Positions 237 through 24,885 of a stretch of 64,000 bases of DNA are shown in pieces. Position numbers and translations under genes: made by a program. Position 1 is the first letter of the stretch, and every line of letters begins with the position of its first letter. The notes below the pieces were generated by a model. It did not search any database. It was not told the origin of the DNA and saw only the letters and a list, made by a program, of their open reading frames with translations. The stretch spans positions 29,783 to 93,782 of the forward strand of contig DATJUG010000064.1 of NCBI GenBank assembly GCA_035502635.1, given 5' to 3'. Origin of the DNA: Bryobacteraceae bacterium (GTDB lineage Bacteria > Acidobacteriota > Terriglobia > Bryobacterales > Bryobacteraceae).

Positions 237-3200
237 GTGGATCTCGACTACATCGCCCAGCAGTTGAACAACAACATCGACCCGGCCTCGCGAAGGCTCT
301 CGCTTCCCATCTCCGTCGATTTAGGCGCGCCCATCAAGCAACTATTCGAGCAGTTTCTGCTCGGCGGCCCGCTCATCCTGAACGAAGCGCTCGTCACCAT
401 GCAGCAGGGGCAGAATCGTGTCTTGCTGACCGGAACCGGCGCCTCATTCCCGTTCGACACCCTTACTATCCGAGCCTATTTCAGCGTCGCCCCGGCTGGC
501 GATGCCGCGGTGCTGGATCTCATAGGCAATGCAGGCAAGCTCTGGAATTTCGCGGTTGCGTTCCCGGCCTTGGCGCCCACCTTCATGCCGACGCTCTCGT
601 TCGCAAGCGCCGCATTCACCCTCCGTTCGATGGAAGAGCCGGATAAGCCCGCTGGCTTGTCTTTCGCCGGCATTTTGAAACTGGATGGCGCATTATCTTT
701 TCTCCAGCCACTGCTCAATGAAACTCAGCTCGATGTCTCCTCGCCCATCACTCTCGAAGCGAACCTCCCCAAAATCAGGCTGACTGAGAATTACTTCCTG
801 GTTACTCCGGGCATCGGAACCTTCGCTCCGTTTCATGTACGGCTCGTCGCCGCCACGGACCCCACCCCGGATGGCGATATCATTCCTACCTTCGGGATTC
901 AAGGCGTGCTCACTTTTGGCGACGCCCGCGAGCTGAGCATCGGCTACGACTTACTCACAATTATTCCCGGCTATTACCACTTCGTCGCCGATTTTCGCGA
1001 AGCCGATCTTACTTTCGGAAATCTGGCGTCGCTGTTGAACGGATCGGATCCAGCACCCGTTTTGCCCGCTGTCTTCTCCGTCCTGAATAACTTCGAATTC
1101 AAGACCTGGGAGATCTATATTGCGGCATCCGGCTTCAGCGTGGCCAATGTCGTCATTTCCGTCGGTACGAAGCAGCCCTGGGAGCTGCTGCCCAACCATC
1201 TCCTGGATCTGAACCTCGATTATCTGACGCTCAACGTGCAGAACACCGGCAAGCTAGCCGTGTACTGCGACGTGCAGGCCACCTTCACGCTCAAGCAGCA
1301 GGAAGTACCGGCTGTAATCATGCTGCGAGCCAGTTACCCCGGCTTTAAGTTCTCCGGCAAGCTGGTCAGCGGCTACCTCGATATTCCCTATCTAATCGGC
1401 CGCTATATCAGCGAAGCCGCCGCTGAGTTAGTTCCTACTTCGCTCCGCGTCGACGGCTTATATCTTGCTATCGACCCGCCCACATCGTCTTACGCATTTA
1501 GCATCGACACTAAAGCCGAATGGGTGATCAAAATCGCCGACGCCAGCTTCACCGTTCTGGAGATTTCGTTCGACATCAGCCGTGTCGCACAGGCAACCAG
1601 CGGCCGTTTCAAAGGCGCCTTCCGTCTCGGCGCCATTGAGCCGCCCATTCTGGTGGATGTTGCTGCGGGCTACACGACGGCGGGCGGCTGGACCTTTGAA
1701 GGCGGTCTCACCGAAGGCAGTAAGGTCACTTTCAACGACATTCTCAACAGTTACTTCCCCGACTGGAACCTCGAGAGCATGATCGTTACACTCGAGGCCT
1801 TCCGCGTCGAGTATTCCGCGAAAACAGGCGCCTATCGGTTCCAGATCAAGGTCCTGTGGGTCCTCGAATTCCTCGGCTGGACGGCCACTCTGCATGGCGA
1901 GTGCGATATCGCCTACACCGAACAGAAAACGTATAAGGGATTCATTCGCGGCACACTGGACATCGAAGGATTTCTGCTTTCGGCCGAAGTTACTTACCCG
2001 GATAAGACCGTCACCTTGAAATTGGGTGACCTGAAGGTCGAATTTAAAGGCGACCCGGTAGTAATCACCATCTCCTTCCCCAGCATCACGCTTGGCGAAA
2101 TTATCACCACCTTAGTAACTGCCGCCATCGGCGAAAACATTACCCTCCCCGCGCCTTGGAATGTCCTGAACCTGATTAGTCTCAAAGATCTTGTGCTCAG
2201 GATTACCCCCAGCAAGCAAATCTTCGAGGCGGAATACTCGCCGAATCTCAACCTCGGCTTCGTCTCCATCGAGAAATTCGTCCTGCGCTACACCGGCGGC
2301 CAAAACTCCGCCAGCAGCAAGGTCGAGTTCGCAATCACCGCCGGCTCTTTCCTCGGCCAACCCATCGACCCCGCCGACCCGGTCAAGATGAACGTGCTCG
2401 AGCCGGCCTCTGCGCCCAAGGTGCCTGGCGCCGGCGACACAGTTTTCACGTTGCATTTCCTCGCCATCGGCCAACGCGTCGCCCTCAAAGATCCGGTCAA
2501 TGCGAAGACCGTGACCCAAGCCATGGAGATCGTTGAAAAAGCCTTCTACAAACAGCAAGACGAGGAGGGCTCGCCCGTCGCCGGCACCGGCCTCGTTCCC
2601 AGTGAGCGCAGCTCCTGGATCTTCGCCATCCGCGCCGAAATTCTCAGTTCCATCACCATCCGCGCTCTGTTCTTCGATCCCGATCTCTACGGCCTCGGCA
2701 TCAACGTCGGCGGCACGAAGTTCCCCAGCTTCACTGGCCTCAACTTCGAGATCCTCTACAAGAAGATCAACGAGAACGTCGGAGTCTACCAGATCGAGCT
2801 GAAACTCCCAGACGTGATGCGGCAGCTCGAATTCGGAAGCGTGTCCATCACGCTGCCGATCATTGCGCTCGAGATCTACACCAACGGCGATTTCCTCATC
2901 GACTTCGGCTTCCCGGCTAACGGCGATTTCACGCGCTCCTTCGCGATTCAGGTGCTGCCGTTCACCGGCGCAGGCGGCTTCTATTTCGGAGTGCTCAGCA
3001 ACGCCACCGCCAAGCGCCTCCCGCCCGGGCCGCTCTGCGGCAGCTTCAGCCCGGTTATCGAAGCCGGCGTCGGCCTGCGCATCGGCTTGGGGAAAGACAT
3101 CAATAAGGGCGTTTTGAAGGCTGGCCTCAGCCTCACCGTGCAGGGCATCATCGAAGGAACGCTGGCCTTCTATAACGACAACCTGAAACGCCCTGAATAC

Positions 3201-6200
3201 GCCGCCGCCGTCTTCTATTACATCTCCGGACAAGTCTCGATCGTCGGCCAAATCTATGGCGAGATCGATTTCGCAATCATCTCCGCGCGCCTCGACGTGC
3301 TCATCCGCATCGGCGTCACGTTCGCGATGCAGGCGCTCGACCCCATCGTGCTCGGCTTCTTCGCCGAAATCACCGTCAGCGTGTCGGTCAAGATCAATCT
3401 TGGGATCTTCAAGATCACCATCTCGCTATCCTTCTCGGCCACCTTCCGCGAATCGTTCACCATCGGCAGTGTTTCGCCCAAGCCTTGGTACATCTGCCCC
3501 GGCTCCACGCAACCACGGGCCATCCGTGCGCGCCGCACCGCGCTCGATGTCTTCGATCCCGGCTGCGACGACGTTGAGCTCGTTTTCCATCCTGTCACCA
3601 GAACAACGCCGCAGGATGTGCAGGTTCTCTTCGTTCCGCAGTTCACCCCGGCGTCGGATGTCAATGGCGGCGTTCAACCGTCCAAAGCCCGCTGCGTGGC
3701 CGCCTTCAACGTCGAGACTTCGACCGGTAAGTCATCTGCCGTCGAGACCGCTTTCGACCGGCTCGCGCGCGGAGTTTTCCTGTGGACACTCGCCGCTTAT
3801 CTGTTCCCGGAACCAAAGAGCACGCCGGAAGAAGATGTGCTCTCGCAAGAGATCACGCTCACGCAACTCGAGAAGCTCTATTGCGCTCTCACCCGTACCT
3901 CCGCAAGCCTGCTCTTCGATGAAACCCAGCTCACCGGCTTCTTCGCCGCCTATTTCAAGTTCATCGTCAGCCTGGCCGAGGAGCAAGCGGACGCCCGCAT
4001 CACCACCATCTTCCCGGCTCTCACGCCATTCATCCTCGTGCCGCCCACCCTGCCGGAAATTCCGTTCGCTTCCTGGCGAATGGTCTCGAGCCAATACCTG
4101 GCCGCCATCAAGAAATACTTCGAGCCCATGCAGGTGGATTACCTCTCGCCCAAAGAGAAGGCCGCGAAAGCCGCGCGCGCCGCCGCAGCGCCGGCTGACC
4201 CCGGCGACAAGTCGCTTGCCTGCTGGATGATGCTCGATTACTTCACTCTCCTTGTGAAAGACACCACGCAAGCCGCCATCGACACCATGACCGCCATGAC
4301 CACTACGGTCGGCGAAGGCGCCACCCTCGGGTCCATCCTGGCGCGCTATCCGGGTTCGGGCGCAACGGTCGAAGAGCTGGTCTGGGCAAATGCCACCACG
4401 CCGCTTTCTCTCAACGCCGGAGTTCGGCTGGGCGCACCCATGGGTGCTGAATACCGCGTCGACGCGAACGGCCCGAACACGCTATTCGGAATCGCGCGTC
4501 ATCACCATATCCGGCTGAACGAATTGGCGCGCACGAATCAGGACGTTCCCGGTCTCTTCCCGGCCGGCCGCCGCATCTGGTTTCCACTCATCGATTCCAT
4601 CAAAGTTTCAGACCTGCTCGCCGCCATGCAAGACCAAAGCGCGTTCCAGCACCTGGCTGGAAGCGCCTCGCGCGTGCTGCTCTCCGGGTTGCGTCCCCCT
4701 GCTCCCAACGACGGCCCGCTCACACCGCTGTATGAGCTGAATGGCCAGCAGTTTGATGCATCCACGCTCCAGGTTGGCAGCTCCTTCAGCCTGAAGATCA
4801 ATGCCGATCTGAAGTGGCTCGTCTTTGCTAAGCCCTCCTCGGACCCGCTCAGTCTCCCCGTCGTCATCAGTGCCGACGAAGCCAACGTTATTGCGGCATT
4901 CAACACCGCCAAGCTCGATCCGCAGATTCAATTGCTCCAGCCGTTGGATCTCTACAAAGTGGAACCGAAGTCATTCGGAGTCGGCAACGCGACTCTCTGG
5001 CAACTGGCCGAGGACCCGGTCAACCGCTCGATCTGGATGCTCCCCCAGAATCTGCAAACCATGCTCTTCGACAATCCCGATGCACGACCCCAAGTTGAGC
5101 TTTGGGAATCCATCCAGAAGAACCCCAACCAGGCTCCGCAACCAATCAAAGTTCCCTCCGCCGACTACACCTGGACATCGCGCATCAATGTCGTGGTGCG
5201 CAGAATTCGCACCCGTACTGGCGACCTGGTGCCCAACACCTATGAAATGCGCGGTGCCGGTGTCGCATTTAGCACGGTGCTGCAAAACTTGCTCACTTAC
5301 GCCACGCCAGATCCGGTAACCGATCTCCATATCCTTTATCTGCCCGACCCGCTCGGCGATTTCCAGGGCTTGCTCTCGCCCGCCGCAACAGCAACCCAAA
5401 TCTTCCTTCTGCAGACGAATCTCTCGACCGAAGCCAACCCGGAACTGTCCTTTGCGAGCGCGGCAGCCGTCACGAACACGTCGTATATCACCGGCATGAC
5501 CGCTCTGGACGTCCTCAAATATGTCTGGGAGGGGAGCGTCGTGCGCTCGGGCGGCTACTATCTCTACTACAAGCAAGTCCCCAGCGGCGAGGGCCTGCCC
5601 GAATACTTATTCAACGACACCGAAGAGACCACCCTCACTCTGCTCGTCACCTTGAATCCTGCCGCGCCCGGATTGTGGCCGTACATGAACAGCCTCCTTA
5701 TGACGCGCGAAGTGGATATTCAGAACACCGCGTTCTATCTGAAGGCGATCGGTCCGGAGTTAGTCGAACGCGTTCCAACCATAGGCCCAGGTTTGAACGG
5801 TTTCAACGTTCAGCGCACCACGCCCGTAACTCCGGACCTCAACGGCGCCGTTACTGCCCAGGTCGCTACGCCATTTGTAAGCGAACTCTATAATCTCCTT
5901 AATTTCCGCATTGCAGACTTTGGCGGATTCGATAGCAGCCCGTTCGCCATGCCGGCCACTCCCGCCGATGTCACCGATCCCGATCCGGATCCCAACGCCA
6001 ATCGCACTCCGCGCCTCGAAACGGACCATTGGAATTATCAGTCCGTCGCGCCCATTTACCGTTTCTCGAAAGTAATTCCGCCGCCACCGTCGGATTTACC
6101 CGCTCCGCTGCCGTCCCCGGAAAAGAATCCCTATCGCGGAATCGGCTCCGATGTACGCTTCGAGATTTCCTGGCTCGATCTGTTCGGCAACCGCATCGAG

Positions 6201-9056
6201 ACCCAGAACACCGGGCTGCAGCCCTCGCTCGATATCCCGGTCAGATACTCCGACAATCTGATTCCGGTGGACAAGTGGCCGGCTGTTTCTACCGATTTCC
6301 TCGTGAAAAAAGGCGCTTCGGCTGCGCAGCTCGATGTTACCTTGCGCTTCGACGCCTGCCGTTATCTCCCACCCTCCAGCGGCGGAACAAACGAGGACTA
6401 CAAGAGCATCGCCCTCGCCGACCGCCCGACTTATGAACTGATTTATTATCAACTTACTCAAACCGGCGTCTCTGCCACTATTTCCTCCACCTTCGATTCT
6501 GCCCAGACGCCGTGCATCAAGCCGCTGGTCGAATGTGCCGTATCCATCTATCAGTTCTTGAATGCCATTGTCGAGAATTCATCCTGGACAATTCCAGCCG
6601 ATAAAGGGATTTCTTTCACGGCAAAAGATACTAATCCTCTGCAGTATTATCAGTTGCTGGTTTCTATTTCCATTGAGCGTCCGGCTGCCCAAATACACGC
6701 CCAATTAAAGGACCCGCCGTTTGATCCCGTGCGCCGCGTCAGCAGCTTCGTTCCGGCCCAGTATACGGAAACACCCACGGATGATCCGAAGGAAAAGCCG
6801 CTTACTTTGCGCGCTTTCGTGGAACAACTGGAGCTCGCCTTCCCGAACTTGGCTGTGGCGACCGCCAAACCGCGCGCCTCCGCGAATGCCGAAAACACCC
6901 TGAAAGAGATTTGGATGGTGCGCTTCGGCGGCACAAACGGCATCGTCTACGATGTCAAACAGCCCGCCTTTTACTTCGCGCCCCTGCCGCTCTCGCGCAC
7001 TCTCCAGTCCACCGAAGTTTCCCTCTATTCGTACAGCAGCGGAAAACCCATCGATCAGGGCACGCTGCAGTCCTATTCGTTCTCGGGCGTCGATATGGAC
7101 CTGCTCGCGAAAACGTTCCTGGAAACCGTCGACCTGGTTCTTTCTCCCCAATTTGTAGTGCCCGCGTGGCTGGCGGTGAATGAAGAGGAACCGAATGCGT
7201 CGGGCCCGAACGCGATTGAACGAATACTCAGCTACAAGAAGGATCTCGCGGGCGCCATCGCTGGAGGGATCGCGCCCGTGCTGGTCGAAGAGCAAAGCAC
7301 GGGAAAAAATCTCGAAGCCGCAACCGCGAAACTACGCCAGCAGCTCCTGATCCGGCTCTCCGACCTGTATTCGGTGCATTGCATCGTGCAGTTCAACGTC
7401 TCCATCGACTCCAGCTTCACTGATGAAGCAACTGCACCGCGCCTGTTCGGCCATCCGGGACCGAAGCAGGCCATCCCGGCGCCCGGCGCGCAAACTCAGG
7501 ACTATTCATTCTCCACGGCGGAAATATCGCTATGCAACAAGCCCGGCGCTTCGCTGCTGACATTCCTGTTTGGCACGCGCGATCCTTCGGCCGCCAAGAA
7601 CGTCACGCTGGAGATGGACTATCAGCGCTCCAACCTGCAGCACGGATTCTCTACCATTCCCGGCATTCCGGACTACGAAGCTTCTTCGTGGCTCGCCTTC
7701 TATCAATTGGAGCAAGCCGAACCCGCGGGGGCGTCACAGAGCGGCCGCACCGATCTCGGCCTCGTCACGGTGCCCGTCCCGCTGCGCGCTTATCCGCCGC
7801 CGCCTGTGCTTCTGGAGCAAAGAGGATTGCCGCAGGAAGCGGTCGCGCTGCACGCGTCCGGCAATCCCGTGCTCGAACTTACGAAACGCTGGGTTTTTGA
7901 ATTTAATTGGACTTACGACCTCGCCGAGCAAGACACCCTCTATAGCGATGTTCAGTTCAACGTGCCTGGCGGAAAAGCAGCCTTCCTCAAAGCCGTACCA
8001 ACCTTGGATCTGCTTGGCGCGCTTCTGCAGTTCTCAACCGTGTATGCTGATGTCCTCCGCGACCTGGAAGATTCGTTGATCGCGACACCCAATTCGGAGC
8101 TTGCGACCGTAACCCTGAATTCTTTAGCCTGGCTAGTCCAGTTAGTCTCCGCGGCGTCGTCCGCATGGCCCCAGGCAAAGACCGCGCTGTTTGTGTTGCC
8201 CGAAGTGCTGACCGCGAACTTGCGGGTCACGCAAGCGCCCGCTACGGTGTCGGGTGTTGATTACCCGGTATTTTCCGTTACCGTGGAGTGCGAAACCGAT
8301 GGCCGCCTCTTGGAACCTACCGTAAGCCTGCCCGGTTTCAAGGCCGTACCTTTGCCCAAGCTTGCTGCCAGTAACACGACTAAGACCTATGCGTATCTGG
8401 ACGCGCAGGCTGAATACTTGCCTTACAGCGCAGGCGCCGCGATTCACACCCGTGGAATTCGTTTCCAGAACATGAATATCCTCGACGAGCAAACCGGTTG
8501 GGCCGGTCTTCACATCCGCCGCAACGAAGTCCTGGTCGAAGGCTATGAAACTAACCCAAAGTTCGTCTATGAGACGCCCGACCTACGCTTCGCCTCGGTG
8601 CTGACCCCGCTCCTGAATCCGGATGTGCCCATTAACATCGCCGATTCCAGCGCCTCGAAACCGGCATCGGACAAACTCTACCATTATCTGTTTAACTTCC
8701 TTTCGGATTTCTTCGGCAGTGCGCCTGACGCTGGCGGCACAATCAAACTGGGCGGAAGTTTTGTCTATGATTTGAACGCCGGGACGGGCCCGGTGCCTCT
8801 GCCCGTTTCCTTGCCCGTCTGGATGACTCTTCCAACTCAAGTCACTACCGGCACAGCCATGCCCCCGGAAGTCACCATTCAGGAATTCTCCCGTTCGCTT
8901 GCCGATTTTATTGTCCCGTGGTTTGCGGACCGGGGCCTTACAGGCCGCATCGGCCAGCTTGCTGTCCAGCTATCTCTTTATTCCGCTCTCGCCGGTAGTA
9001 ACCTGCCAGTCCTCGAATTACAACAATTATATTTAGAAACGGAGTTGATATGGTAA
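237..9056 (+). CDS. Giant hypothetical protein (2,939 aa), function unknown
   Basis: Uninterrupted 8.8-kb ORF, which is very unlikely by chance. GTG start 2 nt after the upstream stop, and its stop is embedded in the start region of the next gene. No N-terminal signal peptide, no Walker A, no HExxH, no YD/RHS, Ig or other repeat family visible by eye. The N-terminal third looks beta-rich and the protein contains Pro-rich linkers. Confidence 0.9.
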   Translation: MDLDYIAQQLNNNIDPASRRLSLPISVDLGAPIKQLFEQFLLGGPLILNEALVTMQQGQNRVLLTGTGASFPFDTLTIRAYFSVAPAGDAAVLDLIGNAGKLWNFAVAFPALAPTFMPTLSFASAAFTLRSMEEPDKPAGLSFAGILKLDGALSFLQPLLNETQLDVSSPITLEANLPKIRLTENYFLVTPGIGTFAPFHVRLVAATDPTPDGDIIPTFGIQGVLTFGDARELSIGYDLLTIIPGYYHFVADFREADLTFGNLASLLNGSDPAPVLPAVFSVLNNFEFKTWEIYIAASGFSVANVVISVGTKQPWELLPNHLLDLNLDYLTLNVQNTGKLAVYCDVQATFTLKQQEVPAVIMLRASYPGFKFSGKLVSGYLDIPYLIGRYISEAAAELVPTSLRVDGLYLAIDPPTSSYAFSIDTKAEWVIKIADASFTVLEISFDISRVAQATSGRFKGAFRLGAIEPPILVDVAAGYTTAGGWTFEGGLTEGSKVTFNDILNSYFPDWNLESMIVTLEAFRVEYSAKTGAYRFQIKVLWVLEFLGWTATLHGECDIAYTEQKTYKGFIRGTLDIEGFLLSAEVTYPDKTVTLKLGDLKVEFKGDPVVITISFPSITLGEIITTLVTAAIGENITLPAPWNVLNLISLKDLVLRITPSKQIFEAEYSPNLNLGFVSIEKFVLRYTGGQNSASSKVEFAITAGSFLGQPIDPADPVKMNVLEPASAPKVPGAGDTVFTLHFLAIGQRVALKDPVNAKTVTQAMEIVEKAFYKQQDEEGSPVAGTGLVPSERSSWIFAIRAEILSSITIRALFFDPDLYGLGINVGGTKFPSFTGLNFEILYKKINENVGVYQIELKLPDVMRQLEFGSVSITLPIIALEIYTNGDFLIDFGFPANGDFTRSFAIQVLPFTGAGGFYFGVLSNATAKRLPPGPLCGSFSPVIEAGVGLRIGLGKDINKGVLKAGLSLTVQGIIEGTLAFYNDNLKRPEYAAAVFYYISGQVSIVGQIYGEIDFAIISARLDVLIRIGVTFAMQALDPIVLGFFAEITVSVSVKINLGIFKITISLSFSATFRESFTIGSVSPKPWYICPGSTQPRAIRARRTALDVFDPGCDDVELVFHPVTRTTPQDVQVLFVPQFTPASDVNGGVQPSKARCVAAFNVETSTGKSSAVETAFDRLARGVFLWTLAAYLFPEPKSTPEEDVLSQEITLTQLEKLYCALTRTSASLLFDETQLTGFFAAYFKFIVSLAEEQADARITTIFPALTPFILVPPTLPEIPFASWRMVSSQYLAAIKKYFEPMQVDYLSPKEKAAKAARAAAAPADPGDKSLACWMMLDYFTLLVKDTTQAAIDTMTAMTTTVGEGATLGSILARYPGSGATVEELVWANATTPLSLNAGVRLGAPMGAEYRVDANGPNTLFGIARHHHIRLNELARTNQDVPGLFPAGRRIWFPLIDSIKVSDLLAAMQDQSAFQHLAGSASRVLLSGLRPPAPNDGPLTPLYELNGQQFDASTLQVGSSFSLKINADLKWLVFAKPSSDPLSLPVVISADEANVIAAFNTAKLDPQIQLLQPLDLYKVEPKSFGVGNATLWQLAEDPVNRSIWMLPQNLQTMLFDNPDARPQVELWESIQKNPNQAPQPIKVPSADYTWTSRINVVVRRIRTRTGDLVPNTYEMRGAGVAFSTVLQNLLTYATPDPVTDLHILYLPDPLGDFQGLLSPAATATQIFLLQTNLSTEANPELSFASAAAVTNTSYITGMTALDVLKYVWEGSVVRSGGYYLYYKQVPSGEGLPEYLFNDTEETTLTLLVTLNPAAPGLWPYMNSLLMTREVDIQNTAFYLKAIGPELVERVPTIGPGLNGFNVQRTTPVTPDLNGAVTAQVATPFVSELYNLLNFRIADFGGFDSSPFAMPATPADVTDPDPDPNANRTPRLETDHWNYQSVAPIYRFSKVIPPPPSDLPAPLPSPEKNPYRGIGSDVRFEISWLDLFGNRIETQNTGLQPSLDIPVRYSDNLIPVDKWPAVSTDFLVKKGASAAQLDVTLRFDACRYLPPSSGGTNEDYKSIALADRPTYELIYYQLTQTGVSATISSTFDSAQTPCIKPLVECAVSIYQFLNAIVENSSWTIPADKGISFTAKDTNPLQYYQLLVSISIERPAAQIHAQLKDPPFDPVRRVSSFVPAQYTETPTDDPKEKPLTLRAFVEQLELAFPNLAVATAKPRASANAENTLKEIWMVRFGGTNGIVYDVKQPAFYFAPLPLSRTLQSTEVSLYSYSSGKPIDQGTLQSYSFSGVDMDLLAKTFLETVDLVLSPQFVVPAWLAVNEEEPNASGPNAIERILSYKKDLAGAIAGGIAPVLVEEQSTGKNLEAATAKLRQQLLIRLSDLYSVHCIVQFNVSIDSSFTDEATAPRLFGHPGPKQAIPAPGAQTQDYSFSTAEISLCNKPGASLLTFLFGTRDPSAAKNVTLEMDYQRSNLQHGFSTIPGIPDYEASSWLAFYQLEQAEPAGASQSGRTDLGLVTVPVPLRAYPPPPVLLEQRGLPQEAVALHASGNPVLELTKRWVFEFNWTYDLAEQDTLYSDVQFNVPGGKAAFLKAVPTLDLLGALLQFSTVYADVLRDLEDSLIATPNSELATVTLNSLAWLVQLVSAASSAWPQAKTALFVLPEVLTANLRVTQAPATVSGVDYPVFSVTVECETDGRLLEPTVSLPGFKAVPLPKLAASNTTKTYAYLDAQAEYLPYSAGAAIHTRGIRFQNMNILDEQTGWAGLHIRRNEVLVEGYETNPKFVYETPDLRFASVLTPLLNPDVPINIADSSASKPASDKLYHYLFNFLSDFFGSAPDAGGTIKLGGSFVYDLNAGTGPVPLPVSLPVWMTLPTQVTTGTAMPPEVTIQEFSRSLADFIVPWFADRGLTGRIGQLAVQLSLYSALAGSNLPVLELQQLYLETELIW

Positions 9057-9847
9057 CTCGACTCGTCTGGCTGGCCATACTATTCGCCGCCATCCAGCCA
9101 CTCTACGCCCAAATACTTGTCAGCTCCCAGAACACGTTGCATCTCAGCGATAGCACACGAGGAGCAACCAAGCGCAAGACCATCCTGGATCAGAATGACA
9201 ATTACAATGTCAACCTTCTGCAAGAAGTCATGAAAACTGCGGATCTGGATGATGTAACTCCAGGCAAATACTATTGGAAGGAAAGCGATCTAAAGGGCAA
9301 ATCAAGCTACAAAGAAACATACGGGATTATATACAGCGACTATCTGACAGCCAATGGAGAAATCGAGGACTACCCGGACGATAACGACGATTTCGCTAGG
9401 CCGCCCAGCGGTGTGATGCTCAAGATGAAGTCAGGCGACTACGTCTGGTTTATCGACTTTCATGCTATTTGGGGCAAAAGCGCAAGCCTGCGCGAGGACG
9501 AGGCCACAGAAATGGCCGAGGTCTATAAATACTTCAAGAATCTGGAGATCAACAAGATAAAAACCACCAAAATTGTTATCGCGGGCGACTGGAATCTGGA
9601 TGCGGACAATGACGGCTTCGACGCCTTGAAAGAACTGGATAAGGGGATATTAGAGGTAACTCCTAACATGGAGACCAGCCTCACAAGGTCAGGCGATCCT
9701 TCGCAGCCCTATGATCACTTCATCGCGGAAAAAGGCAAGCTGACTGGTTGCGTTCTCACGCCCATACCTGACGATGAAGATTCGGAATGGTGGCGGGACA
9801 ATGTCTCGGATCATCGTGGAATCAAGTGCACTTACACGTATAAGTAG
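9050..9847 (+). CDS. Secreted DNase I-like nuclease (endonuclease/exonuclease/phosphatase, EEP, superfamily)
   Basis: N-terminal Sec signal (MVTRLVWLAILFAAIQPLYA/Q). Blocks align colinearly with bovine DNase I catalytic motifs: NLLQEV (LIQEV), SSYKETY (NSYKERY), DFHA (ALHS), AGDWNLD (MGDFNAD), YDHFI (YDRIV), VSDHRGI (ISDHYPV). GGAG sits 5 nt upstream of the ATG. The ATG overlaps the giant ORF stop (ATGGTAA). Confidence 0.85.
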   Translation: MVTRLVWLAILFAAIQPLYAQILVSSQNTLHLSDSTRGATKRKTILDQNDNYNVNLLQEVMKTADLDDVTPGKYYWKESDLKGKSSYKETYGIIYSDYLTANGEIEDYPDDNDDFARPPSGVMLKMKSGDYVWFIDFHAIWGKSASLREDEATEMAEVYKYFKNLEINKIKTTKIVIAGDWNLDADNDGFDALKELDKGILEVTPNMETSLTRSGDPSQPYDHFIAEKGKLTGCVLTPIPDDEDSEWWRDNVSDHRGIKCTYTYK

Positions 9848-9854
9848 GGTGTTT

Positions 9855-10724
9855 ATGCGCGGACTATACTTAGGCATCTCTTTCTGCCTTGCGCTGCGCG
9901 TTTCAGCCGCGCCACCGGTTGCCACAGGCGTATCGTTCACCGATCGCTTTATAGCAACTCCCAACCGGCATGGCCCCGTGATGGTCTATATTGCCGCTAA
10001 TTCCTTTCTCATGGGCAGCAGTCCAGAGGAATTCGGTTACACGCCATACGAACTGCGTCATCCCGTGCAGCTCTCAGCTTTCTCAATCGGTAAGTACGAA
10101 GTCACAAACGCCGAGTTTTGCCGTTTTCTGAATAACCAAGGGAACCAGATCGACGGCGGAATCCCTTGGATTCTAACCGGTCGATCGCATCGTTGTCGCA
10201 TTCAGCAGCACGGCGCCGTCTTCACGCCGGTCCCCGGTTTTGCGAACCACCCGGTCGTGACCGTATCCTGGCTCGGCGCGCGCGCTTACTGCCGGTGGCT
10301 GTCCCAGCAGACCGGCCGCAATTATCATCTCCCGACCGAAGCCCAGTGGGAATGCGCCGCCCGCGCCGGCGTCCGCACCTTGTGGGATTGGGGGAACGAG
10401 TTCGCGCCGGGCCGCCTCAATTGGCGCGGCTATTCGCTCGATCCGGCAACTACTCCGGTCGGCTCCTTCCCCCCGAACGCGTGGGGAATTTGCGATATGC
10501 TCGGCAACGTTTGGGAGTGGGTGCTGGATGCTTTCGATCCGGAGTTCTATTTATATTCGCCACTGAAAGATCCGGTCTTTTTCAAGGACGAGTGCTTGAC
10601 TCCGGGTATCCGCGGCGGAAGCTTCCGCGATAGCCTCGAATTCTGCCGTCCGGGGTACCGGGTCAACATGTGGTGGTGGGGGGATTATGACAGCATCGGT
10701 TTCCGCGTTGCTTCTCAGGCTTGA
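9855..10724 (+). CDS. Secreted SUMF1/EgtB/PvdO (FGE-sulfatase fold) domain protein
   Basis: Motifs HPVVTVSW, AxAYCxWL, YHLPTEAQWECAARAG, GNVWEWVLD and RGGSF are typical of PF03781-type domains. Start chosen at ATG 9855 (MRGLYLGISFCLALRVSAAPP signal-like N-terminus) rather than 9774, which would overlap the nuclease gene. Only one Cys follows RGGSF (EFCRPGY), so the FGE catalytic Cys pair is absent. Confidence 0.85.
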   Translation: MRGLYLGISFCLALRVSAAPPVATGVSFTDRFIATPNRHGPVMVYIAANSFLMGSSPEEFGYTPYELRHPVQLSAFSIGKYEVTNAEFCRFLNNQGNQIDGGIPWILTGRSHRCRIQQHGAVFTPVPGFANHPVVTVSWLGARAYCRWLSQQTGRNYHLPTEAQWECAARAGVRTLWDWGNEFAPGRLNWRGYSLDPATTPVGSFPPNAWGICDMLGNVWEWVLDAFDPEFYLYSPLKDPVFFKDECLTPGIRGGSFRDSLEFCRPGYRVNMWWWGDYDSIGFRVASQA

Positions 10725-12675
10725 GATTTTGGTTTGCGTCCTCGCTGCCGCGCTTCCCGCCGGGGCCGTTACTCATCTTGTGTATTCCCATTCTGGCCAA
10801 CCCGCCCAGGGGCTGTCCGTCGTCGAACGTGCGCCGGAACAGCGTGCCCGGCGCCTCGTCACCGACGAGCTAGGACAGGTCCCAACTCTCCAGGCGGGCA
10901 GCGAAGTCACCATTCGCGATTCGCGCACACACATCATCTTGATGCGCATCGCTCGCGGCGAATCGATTCCCGATCCCATCAAGGTTCCCGAGCTGATCCG
11001 CCTCTCCGGCACTGTTCAGGCCGATCCCGACGCGCGTACCGGCCTGATTGTCCGATACGGCGTTGGCAAGCGCATCACCGCCATGCAGCGATTGCAACGC
11101 AATTACGACCGGTACTCCACACTGAAAGCTCCCGAGAACACCTTCTTCGGTCTGGACCTGCCAACGGCTCCCGCTCATTGGTTAAACGCCACGGTCGATG
11201 CCGCCGGTCGCTTCACCACCAAATGGTTCCCCGCGGTCGACCATCCCATGATCGTCGCTCACAACGCTGCACGCGCGATCGGCATCAGCGACTTCACCCT
11301 CCCGAAAAGCTTCCGCACCGGCGAAACGTTCACGCTCGATCCGCTGTCCCTCACCCCTACCCGAAGTCTCACCATCCGCTATAACGCTCCGCCGAGTCCG
11401 ATAGCCCTTGATGCCGAGGTTTTTCTCAGGGATGTTCAAGTCGATCCGCAACAGCGGGAGTCCGTGCGCCGCGTCCTCAGTGTCCTCGATGCCATTGACC
11501 CGCGCCTGCTCGTCTTTGCAATCGGTTTACGGCCTTATAACATCGAAACGGGCGAAACGGTTATCTCCGGTCTTCCGCAATTTCGCGAAATGCAGGTAAG
11601 ACTGAAGGGCGCCTTCACTCCCGACACTCTCGATCGCACCGTCCAGTTCCAGGGCAATCAAGCCGATGTAGCCGTCTCCTCCGGCGATCTGTTTCCCCGC
11701 GGAGCCTCTACGCTCCTCAAAGGAGTTGTGGTGCTCGAAGATTCTTACGAGCCGGTCAAGGACGCCAAAGTCGTCTATAGCTGCTATCCGGAAAAGGTGG
11801 AAACCACCACGAATGAAAACGGCGAATTCAGTATTCCGGGTGCCTGCGCCGATCGCGATGTCACTTTCTTCGTTACCGCTTCGGATTCTCTTCAACCGGC
11901 TCGCTTCCCTCCTGTGCAGGTGCGCAAGCGAATTCAACCGAAACGGACCTCGCAGCCACTCGTCATCACGCTCCCGGTTCCGCCGCAGCCGGGCCGCTCG
12001 CCTGCGCCGCACGCGGTCGTCTCCATCGGCCCTCAGGAGCGTTTCCAGGCCGAACACGAGCGGCCGCACCTTCAGGCCCTGGAAGGCTCGCCGTTAGCGG
12101 GACTTTTTCGCGGCTCCGCTGTTCCCCCCGGAGCCTATTTCCTTCAGGACTCCCAATATGACGAGGGACCCATCGTTTACGTCTACGAGGACAACATGGA
12201 GGGCGAAATCCCCGACAACGTTGTCAAGGCCACTTGGGAATACCAGTTCGGTTCCAAGATCAGGCTCACCGTCTCAACGACTGGCACTTGGCATGTGCTT
12301 CTCGCCGTCTCTGCGTTCATGGTCTACACCGACGATGCTGTCGATTTGATCGCAAATCAGGAGAAGGAAGTCACTTTGAAGCCGCTGCACTTTGTCAGGT
12401 TTGGTAGCTGGTTGAGCGTCGTCTCAGCCTACCTTCCCCGGCCCGCTTCTAATATCCCGGTTTATTTTGCCAGTCCCGCCGTGGATCCCGATCCCACTGA
12501 GATTGATACTAATGAACTGGGAGTTGCCAAAATGGGCCTGCTCGATACCGACACCATACACGTATTTGTCAGTGATAAGAGGGCGGGCTATTTCGATTGT
12601 GACGTCAAGCTCGATTTTCGCCTTGATGCCAACGTCTTACTCTTGCCCACACCCAGCACGCCCTGCCCGAAATAG
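10687..12675 (+). CDS. Secreted hypothetical protein (662 aa) with a carboxypeptidase-regulatory-like beta-sandwich segment
   Basis: Hydrophobic N-terminus (LLLRLEILVCVLAAALPAGA). Segment VVLEDSYEPVKDAKVVYSCYPEKVETTTNENGEFSIPG resembles CarboxypepD_reg repeats. No catalytic motif seen. The ATG at 10687 overlaps the previous gene by 38 nt; an alternative TTG at 10729 would remove the overlap. Confidence 0.65.
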   Translation: MTASVSALLLRLEILVCVLAAALPAGAVTHLVYSHSGQPAQGLSVVERAPEQRARRLVTDELGQVPTLQAGSEVTIRDSRTHIILMRIARGESIPDPIKVPELIRLSGTVQADPDARTGLIVRYGVGKRITAMQRLQRNYDRYSTLKAPENTFFGLDLPTAPAHWLNATVDAAGRFTTKWFPAVDHPMIVAHNAARAIGISDFTLPKSFRTGETFTLDPLSLTPTRSLTIRYNAPPSPIALDAEVFLRDVQVDPQQRESVRRVLSVLDAIDPRLLVFAIGLRPYNIETGETVISGLPQFREMQVRLKGAFTPDTLDRTVQFQGNQADVAVSSGDLFPRGASTLLKGVVVLEDSYEPVKDAKVVYSCYPEKVETTTNENGEFSIPGACADRDVTFFVTASDSLQPARFPPVQVRKRIQPKRTSQPLVITLPVPPQPGRSPAPHAVVSIGPQERFQAEHERPHLQALEGSPLAGLFRGSAVPPGAYFLQDSQYDEGPIVYVYEDNMEGEIPDNVVKATWEYQFGSKIRLTVSTTGTWHVLLAVSAFMVYTDDAVDLIANQEKEVTLKPLHFVRFGSWLSVVSAYLPRPASNIPVYFASPAVDPDPTEIDTNELGVAKMGLLDTDTIHVFVSDKRAGYFDCDVKLDFRLDANVLLLPTPSTPCPK

Positions 12676-12813: not shown

Positions 12814-12935
12814 GCTCCAATCCGTCTCCGCCCGCGCTACATTTTTGACCGAAAGGGTTTGGAGCTCGAAAGCGCGGAATGCCCCTTCTCTTATGGAGAT
12901 GAACTCCCGCTTGACAAGCCCCAAGAGAGAGGCGG

Positions 12936-13967
12936 ATGCGAACTTATTCCTTATCCGGGCGCTCGAGACGCCCTGTTCTGCCAGAAGACCCAGATGGATT
13001 GGCCGCCAGGCTGAAAGATCTGCTCGTCGGTCAGCCCGAAGCCATCGACACCATCATTCCGTATATCCAGATGCACCAGGCTGGCCTCGCGCCTGAAGGC
13101 CGTCCGGTCGGCGTGGTCTTGTTACTTGGCCCCACCGGCACTGGAAAAACGCGTACCGTGGAAGCGCTCGCTGAAGTCCTGCACGGCAGCAGCAAAAACC
13201 TGCTCAAGGTGGATTGTGGCGAATTTCAGATGGAGCATGAAGTTGCCAAATTGATCGGCGCGCCTCCCGGATATCTGGGCCATCGCGAAACTCAGCCCAT
13301 GTTGACGCAGGCCAAAGTCAACAGCGTCGCCACCGAAAGCAGCGATATCTCGCTCGTCCTTTTCGATGAAATCGAAAAAGCCGCGCCTTCCATGACGCGC
13401 CTGCTGCTGGGCATTCTCGACAAAGCCACCCTGCGCCTCGGCGACAACACAACCGTCAACTTTGAGCGTACGCTGATCTTTCTCACCAGCAACCTGGGCG
13501 CGAAATCCATTCAGCGGCTCAATAAGCCCGATTTCGGCTATGAAGCCATGCTGCCGCCGCCGGCCATGGAAGATATGGTCAAGCTTCAAAGCGTCGGCAT
13601 GTCGGCCGTGCGTCACAAGTTTTCACCGGAATTTGTAAACCGCATCGATTCGGTCATCACCTACAAGCCTCTCGACCGCGATGCTTGCGAGATCATCCTG
13701 GATCAAATCTTCTCCAACTTCTCGCGGCTGATCAATCACCGCCTCGGTCTGCGCGGTTTCCGATTGCAGTGCACCATATCCGGGCGCAACCTGCTCCTCG
13801 ACATGGGCATCAGCGTCGAGTTTGGCGCGCGCGAGCTAAAACGCACGGTTCAGCGTAGTTTCATTCAGCCCGTGGCGGCGCTGGTCGCGCAGGGCCAGAT
13901 CCCGCCCGGCAGTACCGTAATGCTCGACGCCAAGAACGGCGAGTTCAACATCCTTCTGCGGCAATAA
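12936..13967 (+). CDS. Stand-alone single-ring AAA+ ATPase of the ClpA/ClpB D2 type (343 aa)
   Basis: Walker A GPTGTGKT, pore loop GAPPGYLGH, Walker [11 protein letters not shown], sensor-1 LTSNLG, sensor-2 GARELKR, and a D2-small-like C-terminus. Colinear with the D2 module of the bona fide ClpB at 37125-39764. No N-domain, D1 or coiled-coil middle domain. GAGAGAGG Shine-Dalgarno upstream of the ATG. Confidence 0.85.
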   Translation: MRTYSLSGRSRRPVLPEDPDGLAARLKDLLVGQPEAIDTIIPYIQMHQAGLAPEGRPVGVVLLLGPTGTGKTRTVEALAEVLHGSSKNLLKVDCGEFQMEHEVAKLIGAPPGYLGHRETQPMLTQAKVNSVATESSDISLVLFDEIEKAAPSMTRLLLGILDKATLRLGDNTTVNFERTLIFLTSNLGAKSIQRLNKPDFGYEAMLPPPAMEDMVKLQSVGMSAVRHKFSPEFVNRIDSVITYKPLDRDACEIILDQIFSNFSRLINHRLGLRGFRLQCTISGRNLLLDMGISVEFGARELKRTVQRSFIQPVAALVAQGQIPPGSTVMLDAKNGEFNILLRQ

Positions 13968-21624: not shown

Positions 21625-24600
21625 ATGAATCGCTTTCTGGTACTTATGCTCTCAGTGCTTCTCCCTGTTGCAGCAGCACACGCCCAAACATTCCGAGGCG
21701 CAATTAATGGTACGGTGACAGATCCGTCAGGAGCTGTTCTTCCGAACGCGGCGGTGGTCGCAACGGAAAACGCGACCGGCGTGGCGTACAACAGCGTTAC
21801 CACGAACGACGGTGAGTTCTCGTTTCAAGACCTTCCCATAGGCGTATATACGGTGACGGTGACGTCCGCTGGGTTCGAGAAGGTCACGGTCTCAAAAATC
21901 AACGTAACGGCGGGAAACATTTATACGTTGCCGGTGAAGATGACGATGGGGCAGACGTCGACGACGGTGGAAGTTTCCGCCGCCGCAGTGCAGGTAGACA
22001 CCACGACAGCGACACAGAGTGACACCATTCCGACTACGGCTCTGCAGAACATTCCGCTGAACGGGCGCGATTTCTCGCAGCTTATCGCGGTATCGCCGGG
22101 CTACGGCGGATACTCAGTGGGCGGCTACGGGTCGTTGAATGGAACTCGCGCGAACCAGATGAACTGGCAGATCGACGGGACCGATAACAACGATCTTTGG
22201 CACAATATTCCAGCCGTGAATCAAGGTGGCGTGTCGGGGATCGCCGGCGTGGTTATGCCGATTGACGCTATCGATGAGTTTTCGGCGCAAACCCAATCGA
22301 ACGCGGAGAGCGGGCGCAATGCCGGGGGAACGGTAAACCTGACAATCAAAAGCGGCACTAATGAACTACACGGTAGTGCATATTATTACAACCGGAATGA
22401 GTTCTATGCCGCCAGTTCGCCATTTTTCGTACCCACTCCGGATTTCCCAAAAGCGCCGGAATTGCGCAATTACAACACCGGATTTACTATTGGCGGACCG
22501 ATCATCAAGGATAGGACGTTCTACTTCATCGGATTCGAGAGGCAAGATTACGTCTTCGGGCTGACCGGGCTTTCTACCGAGCCCTCGGCTGCCTGGGTAT
22601 CGCAAGCGACTAGCCTGCTGCATCAATTCGGCGTTCCTGAGAGCTCATTATCGGCGAGGCTATTGGCAACCCTTTGGCCGAGCTCGATTGTAAACTTGCC
22701 GGGCACTGTTAACAACTATTTCGCGACGGTTCCGGGAACAGGTTACAGCTATAACGGCGTGGTCAAAGTAGACCATAACTTCAATGACAAAGAGCATCTG
22801 TCGCTCCACTGGTTCGCAGGACAAGGAGACCAGACTCAGCCACCGGGCGCGAGCCTGGCGCTTGCCACCGCGAGCTCCAATCTTGGTTACTATTTCGAAG
22901 TCGCTCCGCTTCATGTGCAGAACTATTCCGCCGTTTTGAATTCGCTCTTTACGGCGCGACTGACTAACCAATTGCTTTTCGGCATCAGTTACTTTAACCA
23001 AGTTTTTCATGATGCCAACAACAGCTTCAACATGGCAGCTCTGGGCCTGGACCTGAGCCCGGATGCGACCAAGAACGGGCAACCCATCATGGGGGCTTCA
23101 AACATCGAGATCAGCGGGTTCGATCAAGCGGGAATTACGCCTCCCGAGGGGCGGAACGACGTTACGGGACACTTGACGGATATTGTTTCCTATGTTGCGG
23201 GAGCTCACCAACTGCGCTTCGGCGGCGAGGTTCGGCAGGGACGAGTGGACGAGTTCTACTTCCGAAGGTCAACCGGGGAGTTCACGTTCGACGGAACACA
23301 GGGACCGTGGGCGGCCTTCTGCACGTCGAATGCTACTGCGTCAGGTTGTAACAGCAATACTCTGGCACTGGCCGATTTCCTTGCTGGCGATGTGAGCACG
23401 TCCTCCATTGCGGTAGGTGATGCGGAGCGAAAGGTTGCGGTGAACGCGTTTGATTTCTTCGGACAAGATGACTGGCAGATTACCCCGAGGCTCAATCTGA
23501 ATTTCGGGCTGCGCTACGAATATTTCGGGCCGTTGCACAGCACGAATGGCGACGATCTCGGTGTCTTCGTGCAAGGAAGCGGCTTAGAGATTCAGGGGAA
23601 GGGCATCAACGCGGTCTTCCCGCCGGATAAGAACAACTTTGCTCCGCGCTTTGGATTCGCGTATCAGGCCGATAGCAGCGGCCATCTGGTGGTGCGCGGC
23701 GGGTTAGGCGTTTTCTATGACCAAATCAACATGAATCCCTTTCTGGACTTTCGCCCTCCCATCAGCGCGGCGGATGGGTTGGAAGACAATCCCATCGGGC
23801 CTCATGCGGTAGACAACTACAGCTTGAATAATTACAATTGGCAAACCGTCCAGGCGGGAGGAGCTTCCATTTTTCCAGGAGTTACAACTTGCTTGGGAAA
23901 TTTCACCACAGATCCCGGGTGCCTGAGTCCAAGTCAGACGTTCAACGTATTCTCAGTGAGTCAGAACTTTCGGGCGCCGTATTTCTTCAACTTCAACCTG
24001 AATGTCGAAAAGAGCCTGGGCAATTCAGCCGTCTGGCAGGTAGGTTACGTAGGCAGCGAAGGACGCAAGCTGTCCATTATGCAGAACATCAACCAGGACG
24101 GAGCGTTTGCGGCGCAATATCCCAACTACGGCTCGATCATCCAATTAAATAGCGACGGAACGTCCAACTATAATTCGCTGCAGACTACTTTGAAGATCAG
24201 GCAGTGGCACGGATTTAACGCGCAATTCGCCTACACTTATGCTCACGAATTAGACGAGGTAACGGAGTATCGCGGCGCAATCCCGCTGGACAGTTTCAAT
24301 CTGGCGCAAGAATACGCGAGCGGCGACTTCGATACACGGCATAATTTCACGGCGTTCTTCACGTGGGATATTCCGGGTTCGTCGCATCTCAAGCTGCTTA
24401 CCAGCGGCTGGCAGGTCAGCAGCGAAATCACGCTTCACAGCGGGCAGCCTTTCAACTTCGATGCCGGAACGCAGCGCCCAGGCTTGAATATTGTGTCGAA
24501 CCCGTTCGCGGGGGTTAGCCACACGTTCGTGAACGGAGTCGGTGAGCAATGGGTGAATCCGGCCGCTTTCTGTGTGCCGGGATCGGCGGGGTGCCCGGGA

Positions 24601-24885
24601 ACAACGAACCCTGACGGAGATCTTTCGCGCAATGCCTTTTACGGACCGGGATTCGCAGATGTAGACTTGTCGGTGTTCAAGAACATTCCAATCAAGGAAC
24701 GGCTGAGAATTCAGCTTCGCGCCGAGATGTTCAATTTGTTTAATCGGATCAATCTCGCCTCCGGCGCAGGTTCGGTGGGGTCTAACGGCGTGGTGGCTGA
24801 TACCATCGGCGATTTCAACGGGGCTCCCGGTCTAGGACCCGGCGAGCCATTCAACATGCAGCTTGCGGCTAAAATCATCTTTTAG
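21625..24885 (+). CDS. TonB-dependent receptor-like outer-membrane protein with N-terminal carboxypeptidase-regulatory-like domain
   Basis: Signal peptide (..PVAAAHA/Q). GTVTDPSGAVLPNAAVVATENATGV...DGEFSFQDLPIGVYTVTV is CarboxypepD_reg-like. Plug-like region (IPLNGRDFSQL), long beta-barrel-like body, C-terminal ...LAAKIIF. GGAGGA Shine-Dalgarno. Confidence 0.8.
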   Translation: MNRFLVLMLSVLLPVAAAHAQTFRGAINGTVTDPSGAVLPNAAVVATENATGVAYNSVTTNDGEFSFQDLPIGVYTVTVTSAGFEKVTVSKINVTAGNIYTLPVKMTMGQTSTTVEVSAAAVQVDTTTATQSDTIPTTALQNIPLNGRDFSQLIAVSPGYGGYSVGGYGSLNGTRANQMNWQIDGTDNNDLWHNIPAVNQGGVSGIAGVVMPIDAIDEFSAQTQSNAESGRNAGGTVNLTIKSGTNELHGSAYYYNRNEFYAASSPFFVPTPDFPKAPELRNYNTGFTIGGPIIKDRTFYFIGFERQDYVFGLTGLSTEPSAAWVSQATSLLHQFGVPESSLSARLLATLWPSSIVNLPGTVNNYFATVPGTGYSYNGVVKVDHNFNDKEHLSLHWFAGQGDQTQPPGASLALATASSNLGYYFEVAPLHVQNYSAVLNSLFTARLTNQLLFGISYFNQVFHDANNSFNMAALGLDLSPDATKNGQPIMGASNIEISGFDQAGITPPEGRNDVTGHLTDIVSYVAGAHQLRFGGEVRQGRVDEFYFRRSTGEFTFDGTQGPWAAFCTSNATASGCNSNTLALADFLAGDVSTSSIAVGDAERKVAVNAFDFFGQDDWQITPRLNLNFGLRYEYFGPLHSTNGDDLGVFVQGSGLEIQGKGINAVFPPDKNNFAPRFGFAYQADSSGHLVVRGGLGVFYDQINMNPFLDFRPPISAADGLEDNPIGPHAVDNYSLNNYNWQTVQAGGASIFPGVTTCLGNFTTDPGCLSPSQTFNVFSVSQNFRAPYFFNFNLNVEKSLGNSAVWQVGYVGSEGRKLSIMQNINQDGAFAAQYPNYGSIIQLNSDGTSNYNSLQTTLKIRQWHGFNAQFAYTYAHELDEVTEYRGAIPLDSFNLAQEYASGDFDTRHNFTAFFTWDIPGSSHLKLLTSGWQVSSEITLHSGQPFNFDAGTQRPGLNIVSNPFAGVSHTFVNGVGEQWVNPAAFCVPGSAGCPGTTNPDGDLSRNAFYGPGFADVDLSVFKNIPIKERLRIQLRAEMFNLFNRINLASGAGSVGSNGVVADTIGDFNGAPGLGPGEPFNMQLAAKIIF

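Follow-up and report, generated by a model that had tools for sequence, protein, structure and literature searches.

The gene at positions 9050-9847 of the 64,000 nt of Bryobacteraceae contig DATJUG010000064.1 analysed here (the window) appears to encode an exported nuclease of the DNase I family, stands out by its low G+C content and overlaps the end of a giant open reading frame (ORF). The question raised by this locus is whether the nuclease gene is a recent and exchangeable acquisition, as was proposed in an earlier reading of the sequence alone (the sequence-only reading), or a fixed part of the gene set in which it lies. We put the probability at about 0.65 that its product is a Sec-exported DNase I-family phosphodiesterase serving as the fixed enzymatic subunit of a five-gene operon, and not recent or exchangeable cargo. 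The related loci that were compared indicate that the genes of the set are inherited together and also move together.

The ORF at 9050-9847 is a clean 265-codon frame on the + strand and the third gene of a tightly packed set of five, which encode, in order, a protein of ~1120 aa, the giant protein (2939 aa), the nuclease, a PvdO-like protein with the fold of formylglycine-generating enzyme (FGE), and a 662-aa protein. The features referred to below are as follows.

1-234, + strand: C-terminus of the ~1120-aa protein ('up1120'), first gene of the set; last 77 codons and stop, cut by the window start
237-9056, + strand: giant ORF, 2939 aa, LysM-bearing (ORF list, homologues, AlphaFold2 model of the core)
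9012-9053, + strand: AT-rich last 14 codons of the giant ORF, peptide LELQQLYLETELIW (codon analysis); includes the nuclease translation-initiation region
9041-9044, + strand: GGAG, Shine-Dalgarno-like motif 5 nt upstream of the nuclease ATG (sequence)
9050-9847, + strand: DNase I-family (EEP-fold) nuclease gene, 265 aa, ATG start (invariant residues, family profile, AlphaFold2 and Foldseek)
9050-9109, + strand: probable Sec signal peptide, aa 1-20 of the nuclease, MVTRLVWLAILFAAIQPLYA (sequence features, judged by eye)
9855-10724, + strand: FGE-sulfatase-fold protein, 289 aa, fourth gene (Pfam FGE-sulfatase, 2.9e-50; signal-like N-terminus)
10687-12675, + strand: 662-aa protein, fifth gene (signal-like N-terminus; weak CarboxypepD_reg beta-sandwich)

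The nuclease gene and its product

The ATG of the nuclease gene (9050-9052) overlaps the TAA of the giant ORF (9054-9056) in the sequence ATGGTAA, and both this overlap and the upstream GGAG are present as originally described. Translational coupling of the nuclease to the giant ORF, also part of that description, is likely given the start/stop overlap, which is kept in relatives. Promoter and terminator scans around the gene returned only chance-level matches. At the N-terminus (MVTRLVWLAILFAAIQPLYA, followed by Q), a basic residue is combined with a hydrophobic core of 11 residues and an ending that resembles A-x-A, and this n-h-c pattern is common to 27 homologues and ends just before the first strand. 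In the AlphaFold2 model, residues 1-19 are unstructured with low pLDDT and the fold begins at residue 20. A cleaved Sec signal, as had been suggested, is therefore probable, and the mature protein would have ~245 aa and a computed isoelectric point (pI) of ~4.6.

To define the family, 38 homologues of the nuclease were found and 27 of them were aligned (alignment A1), the alignment serving as the family profile. All six DNase I motifs are present, namely LLQEV (E59), YKETY (Y87, E89), DFHA (H138), GDWNLD (D180, N182), YDHF (D222) and SDHRG (D254, H255), and the residues N28, E59, Y87, E89, R117, H138, D180, N182, Y221, D222, D254 and H255 are invariant across the 27 aligned sequences. In the profile alignment the invariant columns fall opposite LIQEV, SYKERY, FSREP, ALHSAP, GDFNAD, AYDRIV and SDHYP of DNase I, and we take these residues to be the counterparts of N7, E39, Y76, E78, R111, H134, D168, N170, Y211, D212, D251 and H252 in the DNase I numbering used in the literature. 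The catalytic and metal-binding set (N28, E59, E89, H138, D180, N182, D222, D254 and H255) is complete, and the equivalents of the DNA-contacting residues Y76, R111 and Y211 of DNase I (Y87, R117 and Y221) are likewise invariant in the 27 homologues.

Compared with the PDB, the single nuclease sequence gave only a marginal match to DNase I (E 0.09), while the A1 family profile matched DNase I at E 6.7e-14 over its full length (residues 18-267 against 17-281) and DNase1L3 at E 1.7e-12, also full length, with the next family, sphingomyelinase (beta-hemolysin), at 4e-4. The AlphaFold2 model (pLDDT 93, pTM 0.89) agrees with the profile: in a Foldseek search of the PDB, DNase I entries occupied ranks 1-8 (E 1e-14 to 5e-12, TM-score 0.67-0.73) and DNase1L3 rank 11. 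By motifs, profile and predicted fold, the protein is thus a DNase I homologue with all catalytic residues in place, and this element of the sequence-only reading holds. Several of the homologues carry a precomputed match to Pfam PF03372 (Exo_endo_phos).

The family is small, with 101 cluster representatives at E<=1e-30 among 1.84 billion proteins. A scan of GTDB with the single nuclease sequence gave no match and an alignment-based scan recovered homologues; the sole match in a tblastn search of plasmids was from Fusobacterium and 23 % identical. Searches of PADLOC-DB 2.0 gave no match to a defence-system model for any of the five products, the ~1120-aa protein being represented by a C-terminal fragment of 385 aa from the related locus L001. 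In PHROGs, the nuclease, the giant and 662-aa proteins and the ~1120-aa fragment had no match either.

Base composition and the junction with the giant ORF

The gene is as sharply AT-rich as had been reported. All five hand counts of G+C proved exact, at 0.40 (9181-9240), 0.433 (9241-9300) and 0.40 (9301-9360) within the gene, 0.583 at 8941-9000 in the giant ORF and 0.733 at 10261-10320 in the gene that follows. At 0.49, the gene has the lowest G+C of the 37 ORFs in the window, and 798-nt windows placed over it reach 0.48-0.49, the lowest values anywhere in the 64 kb (mean 0.578, standard deviation 0.025), with only 0.3 % of all such windows equally G+C-poor.

Whether this makes the gene compositionally foreign, as had been concluded, was examined by deriving the expected composition from the codon usage of the window itself (35 other ORFs). 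From the amino acids alone, a G+C of 0.507 is predicted for the nuclease gene and 0.491 is observed, the amino-acid-driven expectation itself lying 5 standard deviations under that of the other genes. Asp, Lys and Tyr are about twice as frequent in the protein as is usual, and Ala, Arg, Pro and Gly about half as frequent; the protein is also rich in Asn, and it is mainly because of this composition that its gene is low in G+C. The G+C at third codon positions (GC3) is 0.606 where 0.658 is expected (z -1.0), a gene-wide deficit at the 13th percentile of equal-sized windows, and an index resembling the codon-adaptation index is 0.677 (z -0.7). Hence, over the whole gene, synonymous codon use is ordinary for the window, only one local patch is atypical (considered below), and the description of the gene as foreign cannot be upheld. 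In L001, L004 and L006, too, the nuclease gene has the lowest G+C of its cassette, although by a smaller margin (0.55-0.57 versus 0.58-0.60). As a matter of method, a sharp dip in G+C can stem from amino-acid composition and is, alone, no evidence of foreign origin.

The end of the giant ORF had also been described as AT-rich and as a possible cassette junction. The first part of this is correct, the last 15 codons having a G+C of 0.29, and in the last 14 codons GC3 is 0.36 where the peptide sequence predicts 0.68 (rank 25 among the 2926 windows of the giant ORF), with rare AT-rich codons that include three TTA, one ATA and two CAA. The second part is not, since the C-terminal peptide of the giant protein and a DNA block at the junction are both conserved. 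The YLETELIW part of LELQQLYLETELIW (...LYLETELIW) is kept in L001 and L006, as is the block GAAACGGAG(T/C)T(G/A)ATATGG, in loci whose giant proteins are just 48-64 % identical overall. The start and stop codons overlap as ATGGTAA in the window, ATGGTGA in L001, ATGA in L004 and ATGGAACTGA in L006. A search for repeats around the nuclease gene found just two short pairs at chance level and no flanking repeats, tRNA and Rfam scans of the whole window revealed no element, and no mobile-element genes lie beside the nuclease gene.

The AT bias in the giant-ORF tail may plausibly stem from selection to keep the initiation region of the nuclease open, although this cannot be demonstrated because the folding energy of the junction RNA is unremarkable (z 0.51). 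The C-terminus of the giant protein has an alternating hydrophobic pattern ending in an aromatic Trp, which resembles a beta-strand terminal signal.

Conservation of the five-gene set

The same gene order, with the same overlaps, is found in L001-L008, which are soil-metagenome contigs and one Terriglobia metagenome-assembled genome (MAG). In L001-L007 the nuclease gene occupies the same overlapping position, and at no locus examined was an unrelated gene found in its place. The four cassette proteins of the window are all closest to those of L001, the identities of the nuclease being congruent with those of the other three genes. When similarity to the copy in L018 was compared across loci, the nuclease and the N-terminus of the giant protein gave a Spearman correlation of 0.98 (n=9 loci), and the nuclease and the ~1120-aa protein one of 0.94 (n=6 loci). 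From this co-divergence, the nuclease behaves as a co-inherited subunit and not as swappable cargo.

More distant nuclease homologues, with 27-40 % identity, adjoin the same partner families in other orders. They come from Allosphingosinicella, Novosphingobium, Candidatus Solibacter, Limnocylindria and Eremiobacterota and from the metagenome contigs L023 and L024. All five families are present, rearranged, in L009, L010, L013, L016, L023 and L024, and partial sets are seen on the short contigs L011 and L012. The five-family set extends across Acidobacteriota, Alphaproteobacteria, Chloroflexota and Eremiobacterota. One such order is [p~410-470][nuclease][FGE-like or ~240 aa][~1120-aa protein][giant]. 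With the nuclease vertically conserved at its position in every relative examined, a member of the same family at the slot in L001-L007, and the linkage to the giant gene kept where the genes are rearranged, the proposal of a horizontally acquired gene in an exchangeable slot does not stand.

The two large proteins of the set have few recognisable features. Only the end of the ~1120-aa protein lies in the window, the translation of 1-234 matching exactly the end of P0215, a protein of 1120 aa. Homologues are encoded ahead of the giant gene in L018, L019, L020, L022, L009, L010, L013, L016, L023 and L024, and the family was always found alongside a giant gene. Searches of Pfam and, with a profile, of the PDB gave no match for it, and hhalign detected no relation between it and the giant protein. 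The giant protein has no signal peptide and no transmembrane helix by hydropathy, and belongs to no Pfam, NCBIfam, PHROGs or PADLOC family. Its homologues are 2900-4300 aa long and many have precomputed LysM matches; in the window protein a LysM-like segment lies at aa ~1355-1434, with a weak match to the LysM structure 4uz2 in the PDB. Conservation is highest in a Gly-rich core at aa ~600-1100, and an AlphaFold2 model of aa 551-1480 (pLDDT 78) includes six antiparallel, partly amphipathic strands of ~20 residues.

Foldseek searches of the PDB and BFVD with the core found no convincing structural neighbour, and no match was found in phage genomes. Resemblance to outer-membrane barrels such as FimD and LptD (TM-score ~0.12) was a generic likeness of long strands, and neither this nor the low-probability Foldseek matches to perforin-2 and gasdermin pores was taken as homology. 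Identification of the giant protein as part of an extracellular contractile injection system or type VI secretion system, a Tc toxin or an Rhs cocoon was also rejected, none of their hallmark families or folds being detected.

The genes after the nuclease encode conserved exported proteins, with no small immunity-like ORFs among them. The FGE-fold protein finds its best PDB match in PvdO (5hha, 2.4e-27) and is closer to PvdO than to true formylglycine-generating enzymes; it probably has only one of the two cysteines that bind copper in the active site of FGE (GGSFRDSLEFCRPGYR). Its gene follows or accompanies that of the nuclease in L001-L007, L011, L012, L013, L016, L023 and L024. The start of the 662-aa gene overlaps the FGE-fold gene by 38 nt if the ATG at 10687 is used, and homologues are found in L001, L004, L006, L011, L012, L023 and L024. 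The match of the 662-aa protein to Pfam CarboxypepD_reg (1.6e-5) is under the cut-off, and no relative was found in the PDB, the profile giving transthyretin-like matches only (E>0.06).

Homologues of the giant protein alone reach further, into Bacteroidota, Alpha-, Beta- and Gammaproteobacteria, Cyanobacteria, Bacillota and Actinomycetota, often on megaplasmids, and their neighbours are annotated as hypothetical throughout. What recurs in these distant versions is the giant protein, preceded by one protein of ~1050-1330 aa or by two of them. Three of the versions (Bradyrhizobium, Nostoc and L019) also have, immediately upstream of the giant gene, a gene for an EEP enzyme of 344-491 aa that lacks a signal peptide, at the following positions.

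L020 (Bradyrhizobium), 8521-9996: signal-less EEP gene
L029 (Nostoc plasmid), 10904-12010: signal-less EEP gene
L019 (forest-soil contig), 8947-9981: signal-less EEP gene

These enzymes keep the motifs WNI..., ...QE/EL, GDFN and SDHLP, and an hhalign comparison of the nuclease family with the 491-aa Bradyrhizobium enzyme found no relation beyond the LLQE motif. That an EEP enzyme of a different family adjoins distant giants suggests that a phosphodiesterase is essential to the giant-protein system.

In L021 (Pseudomonas asiatica, JAODZC010000005.1), a gene for a 3297-aa giant homologue lies a few kb from TnsA/TnsB/TniB/TniQ-like genes and may be cargo of a Tn7-like element. The locus also holds AAA ATPase and subtilase genes, a setting typical of conflict and defence genes. 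The patchy spread across phyla, the plasmids and the Tn7-like neighbour together favour a conflict-type function.

Possible roles, competing explanations and surrounding genes

In the proposed mechanism, ribosomes finishing the giant ORF would re-initiate at the overlapping ATG, and the pre-protein would be exported by Sec and cleaved near Ala20. The acidic enzyme of ~245 aa would then hydrolyse phosphodiester bonds in DNA outside the cytoplasm, in the periplasm or beyond, using the DNase I machinery of His138 and His255 with Asp222 and Asp254, and with the metal held by Glu59, Asp180 and Asn182. It probably works with its two co-exported partners and may provide the enzymatic function of an assembly formed by the giant and ~1120-aa proteins. 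The system may serve in antagonism, in defence at the envelope against DNA entering the cell, or in the processing of matrix or extracellular DNA.

A broader proposal, which we consider possible but less likely than not, is that the five genes represent an undescribed and genuinely new kind of system, one that spreads horizontally, occurs in many bacterial phyla and acts in conflict or at the envelope. Its components would be a LysM protein of ~3000-4000 aa with long amphipathic beta-hairpins, one or two partners of ~1100-1300 aa and an obligatory EEP nuclease, which the giant assembly would bring to, or place against, foreign DNA or adjacent cells. In the Terriglobia type the nuclease would be Sec-exported with two binding-fold partners, and in the Nostoc/Bradyrhizobium type it would be signal-less.

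A number of observations weigh against a fixed, exported DNase. At nuclease codons ~56-105 the synonymous AT excess falls in the lowest 0.9 % of 50-codon windows, a patch that coincides with the stretch in which G+C had been counted by hand, so there is a small synonymous component and amino acids alone do not explain the composition. The window nuclease (0.49) also dips further in G+C than its orthologues (0.55-0.57). The minor-groove residues R9 and R41 of DNase I are replaced by an invariant Leu30 and Met61 in the nuclease family. The match to PF03372 (21.1 bits, E 2.9e-4) is under the cut-off of 24.5 and involves the C-terminal half only, and that to NCBIfam NF045851 (MnuA) reaches 42.9 bits where the cut-off is 185 and covers aa 151-229 only. 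EEP enzymes also cleave lipids, RNA and phospho-sugars. The signal peptide was called by eye, and the giant and ~1120-aa proteins are signal-less, which is hard to reconcile with their meeting an exported nuclease. Finally, at least one distant homologue of the nuclease (L014) appears to stand alone, no giant gene lying within 10 kb of it; the wider nuclease family is therefore not exclusively tied to the system.

Some of these points are shared by the proposal that the nuclease is recently acquired cargo, or an effector, in an exchangeable slot, with the AT-rich tail of the giant ORF as the cassette junction. It accommodates the G+C minimum of the window, the AT-rich synonymous codons both in the 50-codon patch and in the 14-codon tail of the giant ORF, and the patchiness of the set across phyla, where some distant versions lie on plasmids or a Tn7-like element; this spread and these settings make it likely that the set as a whole has been transferred horizontally. 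However, a swappable nuclease is contradicted by its constant overlapping position in all related loci, the congruent identities and strong co-divergence, the conserved junction peptide and DNA, the native codon usage of the whole gene, the lack of flanking repeats, integrase or tRNA, and the lack of an unrelated replacement at any locus examined. We regard this proposal as largely refuted and very improbable. An ordinary secreted DNase for scavenging nutrients or degrading extracellular DNA, co-transcribed by chance and with no functional tie to the giant, is only a little less improbable. Soil bacteria commonly secrete DNases, of the EEP type and others, to scavenge phosphate or nucleotides and to remodel biofilms, and the apparently solitary homologue in L014 would fit, but linkage to the giant and ~1120-aa genes survives rearranged orders in at least four phyla, divergence is tightly correlated and independent EEP families have been recruited beside distant giants, and chance neighbours would not stay linked in this way.

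It is also unlikely, though less so than either of these, that the DNase I fold acts here on a substrate other than DNA, such as an envelope lipid, a glycan, a teichoic-acid-type phosphodiester or RNA. This would suit an exported location and the peptidoglycan-binding LysM of the giant, and the EEP superfamily is functionally diverse. The loss of R9 and R41, the weak profile match to sphingomyelinase (beta-hemolysin, 4e-4), the listing of sphingomyelinases, TDP2 and nocturnin by Foldseek at E ~1e-9 and the acidity of the protein (pI 4.6) point in the same direction. However, bovine DNase I is itself acidic, DNase I and DNase1L3 come first both by profile (by about nine orders of magnitude) and by structure, and the equivalents of Y76, R111 and Y211 are invariant, which favours DNA as the substrate of the proposed exported subunit.

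Among known enzymes, eukaryotic DNase I and DNase1L3 (1DNK, 2DNJ, 4AWN and 7KIU) share the fold (Foldseek E 1e-14, TM-score ~0.7), and the nuclease resembles DNase I in having an N-terminal signal (it is predicted to be secreted), in being acidic and in keeping all the catalytic equivalents. It differs in that identity is only 16-19 %, R9 and R41 are replaced, and the gene is bacterial and lies inside a five-gene operon with a giant. Both disulfides of DNase I are also absent, the only cysteines of the mature protein being 232 and 259, each partly conserved in the family. Exported bacterial EEP nucleases (such as the Mycoplasma MnuA family and the Bacteroides protein 3MPR) are likewise of the DNase I-like type, and 3MPR is the best structural match outside DNase I, whereas the match to MnuA is partial and far under the 185-bit cut-off. 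We know of no MnuA-type or other exported bacterial EEP nuclease that is linked to a giant-protein gene set.

The likeness to the cytolethal distending toxin CdtABC, a compact operon with a DNase I-fold subunit and two Sec-exported, non-catalytic binding-fold partners, is one of analogy only. One partner of the nuclease has an FGE/C-type-lectin-like fold and the other a beta-sandwich, and neither is related to CdtA or CdtC, which are ricin-like. The five-gene set further includes two very large proteins without signal peptides and has no known host-cell context, and no CdtB was among the top 50 Foldseek matches of the nuclease; membership of CdtABC thus fails. As to the periplasmic PvdO-like proteins of the FGE-sulfatase fold, the FGE-fold neighbour matches PvdO 5hha and has a signal-like N-terminus, but it scores 120 bits where the NCBIfam PvdO cut-off is 500 and there is no pyoverdine context.

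Taken alone, the nuclease is one more bacterial DNase I-like enzyme, and it is the gene context that is of note. The nuclease is locked, through rearrangements across at least four phyla, to giant and ~1120-aa proteins that, beyond the LysM module, have no match in Pfam, the PDB, PHROGs or PADLOC. No description of the five-gene set was found in the literature and, as far as could be found, the obligate association of this nuclease with a giant-protein gene set is undescribed. Related sets are carried by cultured organisms, namely Mycetohabitans rhizoxinica (on pBRH02), Burkholderia sp. FERM BP-3421, Tistrella mobilis, Nostoc carneum, Azospirillum sp. B510 and Chitinophaga sancti, which open experimental access to this widespread, uncharacterised multi-protein system.

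Among the related loci, a conserved protein of ~410-470 aa is encoded before the nuclease in the Sphingomonadales, Solibacter, Limnocylindria and Eremiobacterota versions; none was seen in the window cassette. The members checked (L009 and L016) belong to no Pfam family. The genes lie at the following positions.

L009, 8556-9926: ~410-470-aa protein
L010, 3574-4980: ~410-470-aa protein
L011, 8733-9956: ~410-470-aa protein
L013, 8676-9911: ~410-470-aa protein
L016, 8664-9902: ~410-470-aa protein

In L011 (Candidatus Solibacter), two paralogous nuclease genes (9794-10840 and 12826-13746) flank the gene for the 662-aa protein.

Just past the five-gene set in the window, at 12936-13967 on the + strand, is a gene for a stand-alone AAA+ protein of 343 aa that corresponds only to the second nucleotide-binding and small domains of ClpB/ClpA/ClpV (AAA_2, ClpB_D2-small); it is not conserved at this position in related loci. 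Also downstream are housekeeping genes, including those for ferrochelatase, pyruvate kinase and FtsK, and a TonB-type receptor. At 21625-24885 on the + strand is encoded a TonB-dependent-receptor-like protein with CarboxypepD_reg and OMP_b-brl_4 domains that is typical of Acidobacteriota, which fits with the closest relatives of the cassette being found in Terriglobia MAGs.

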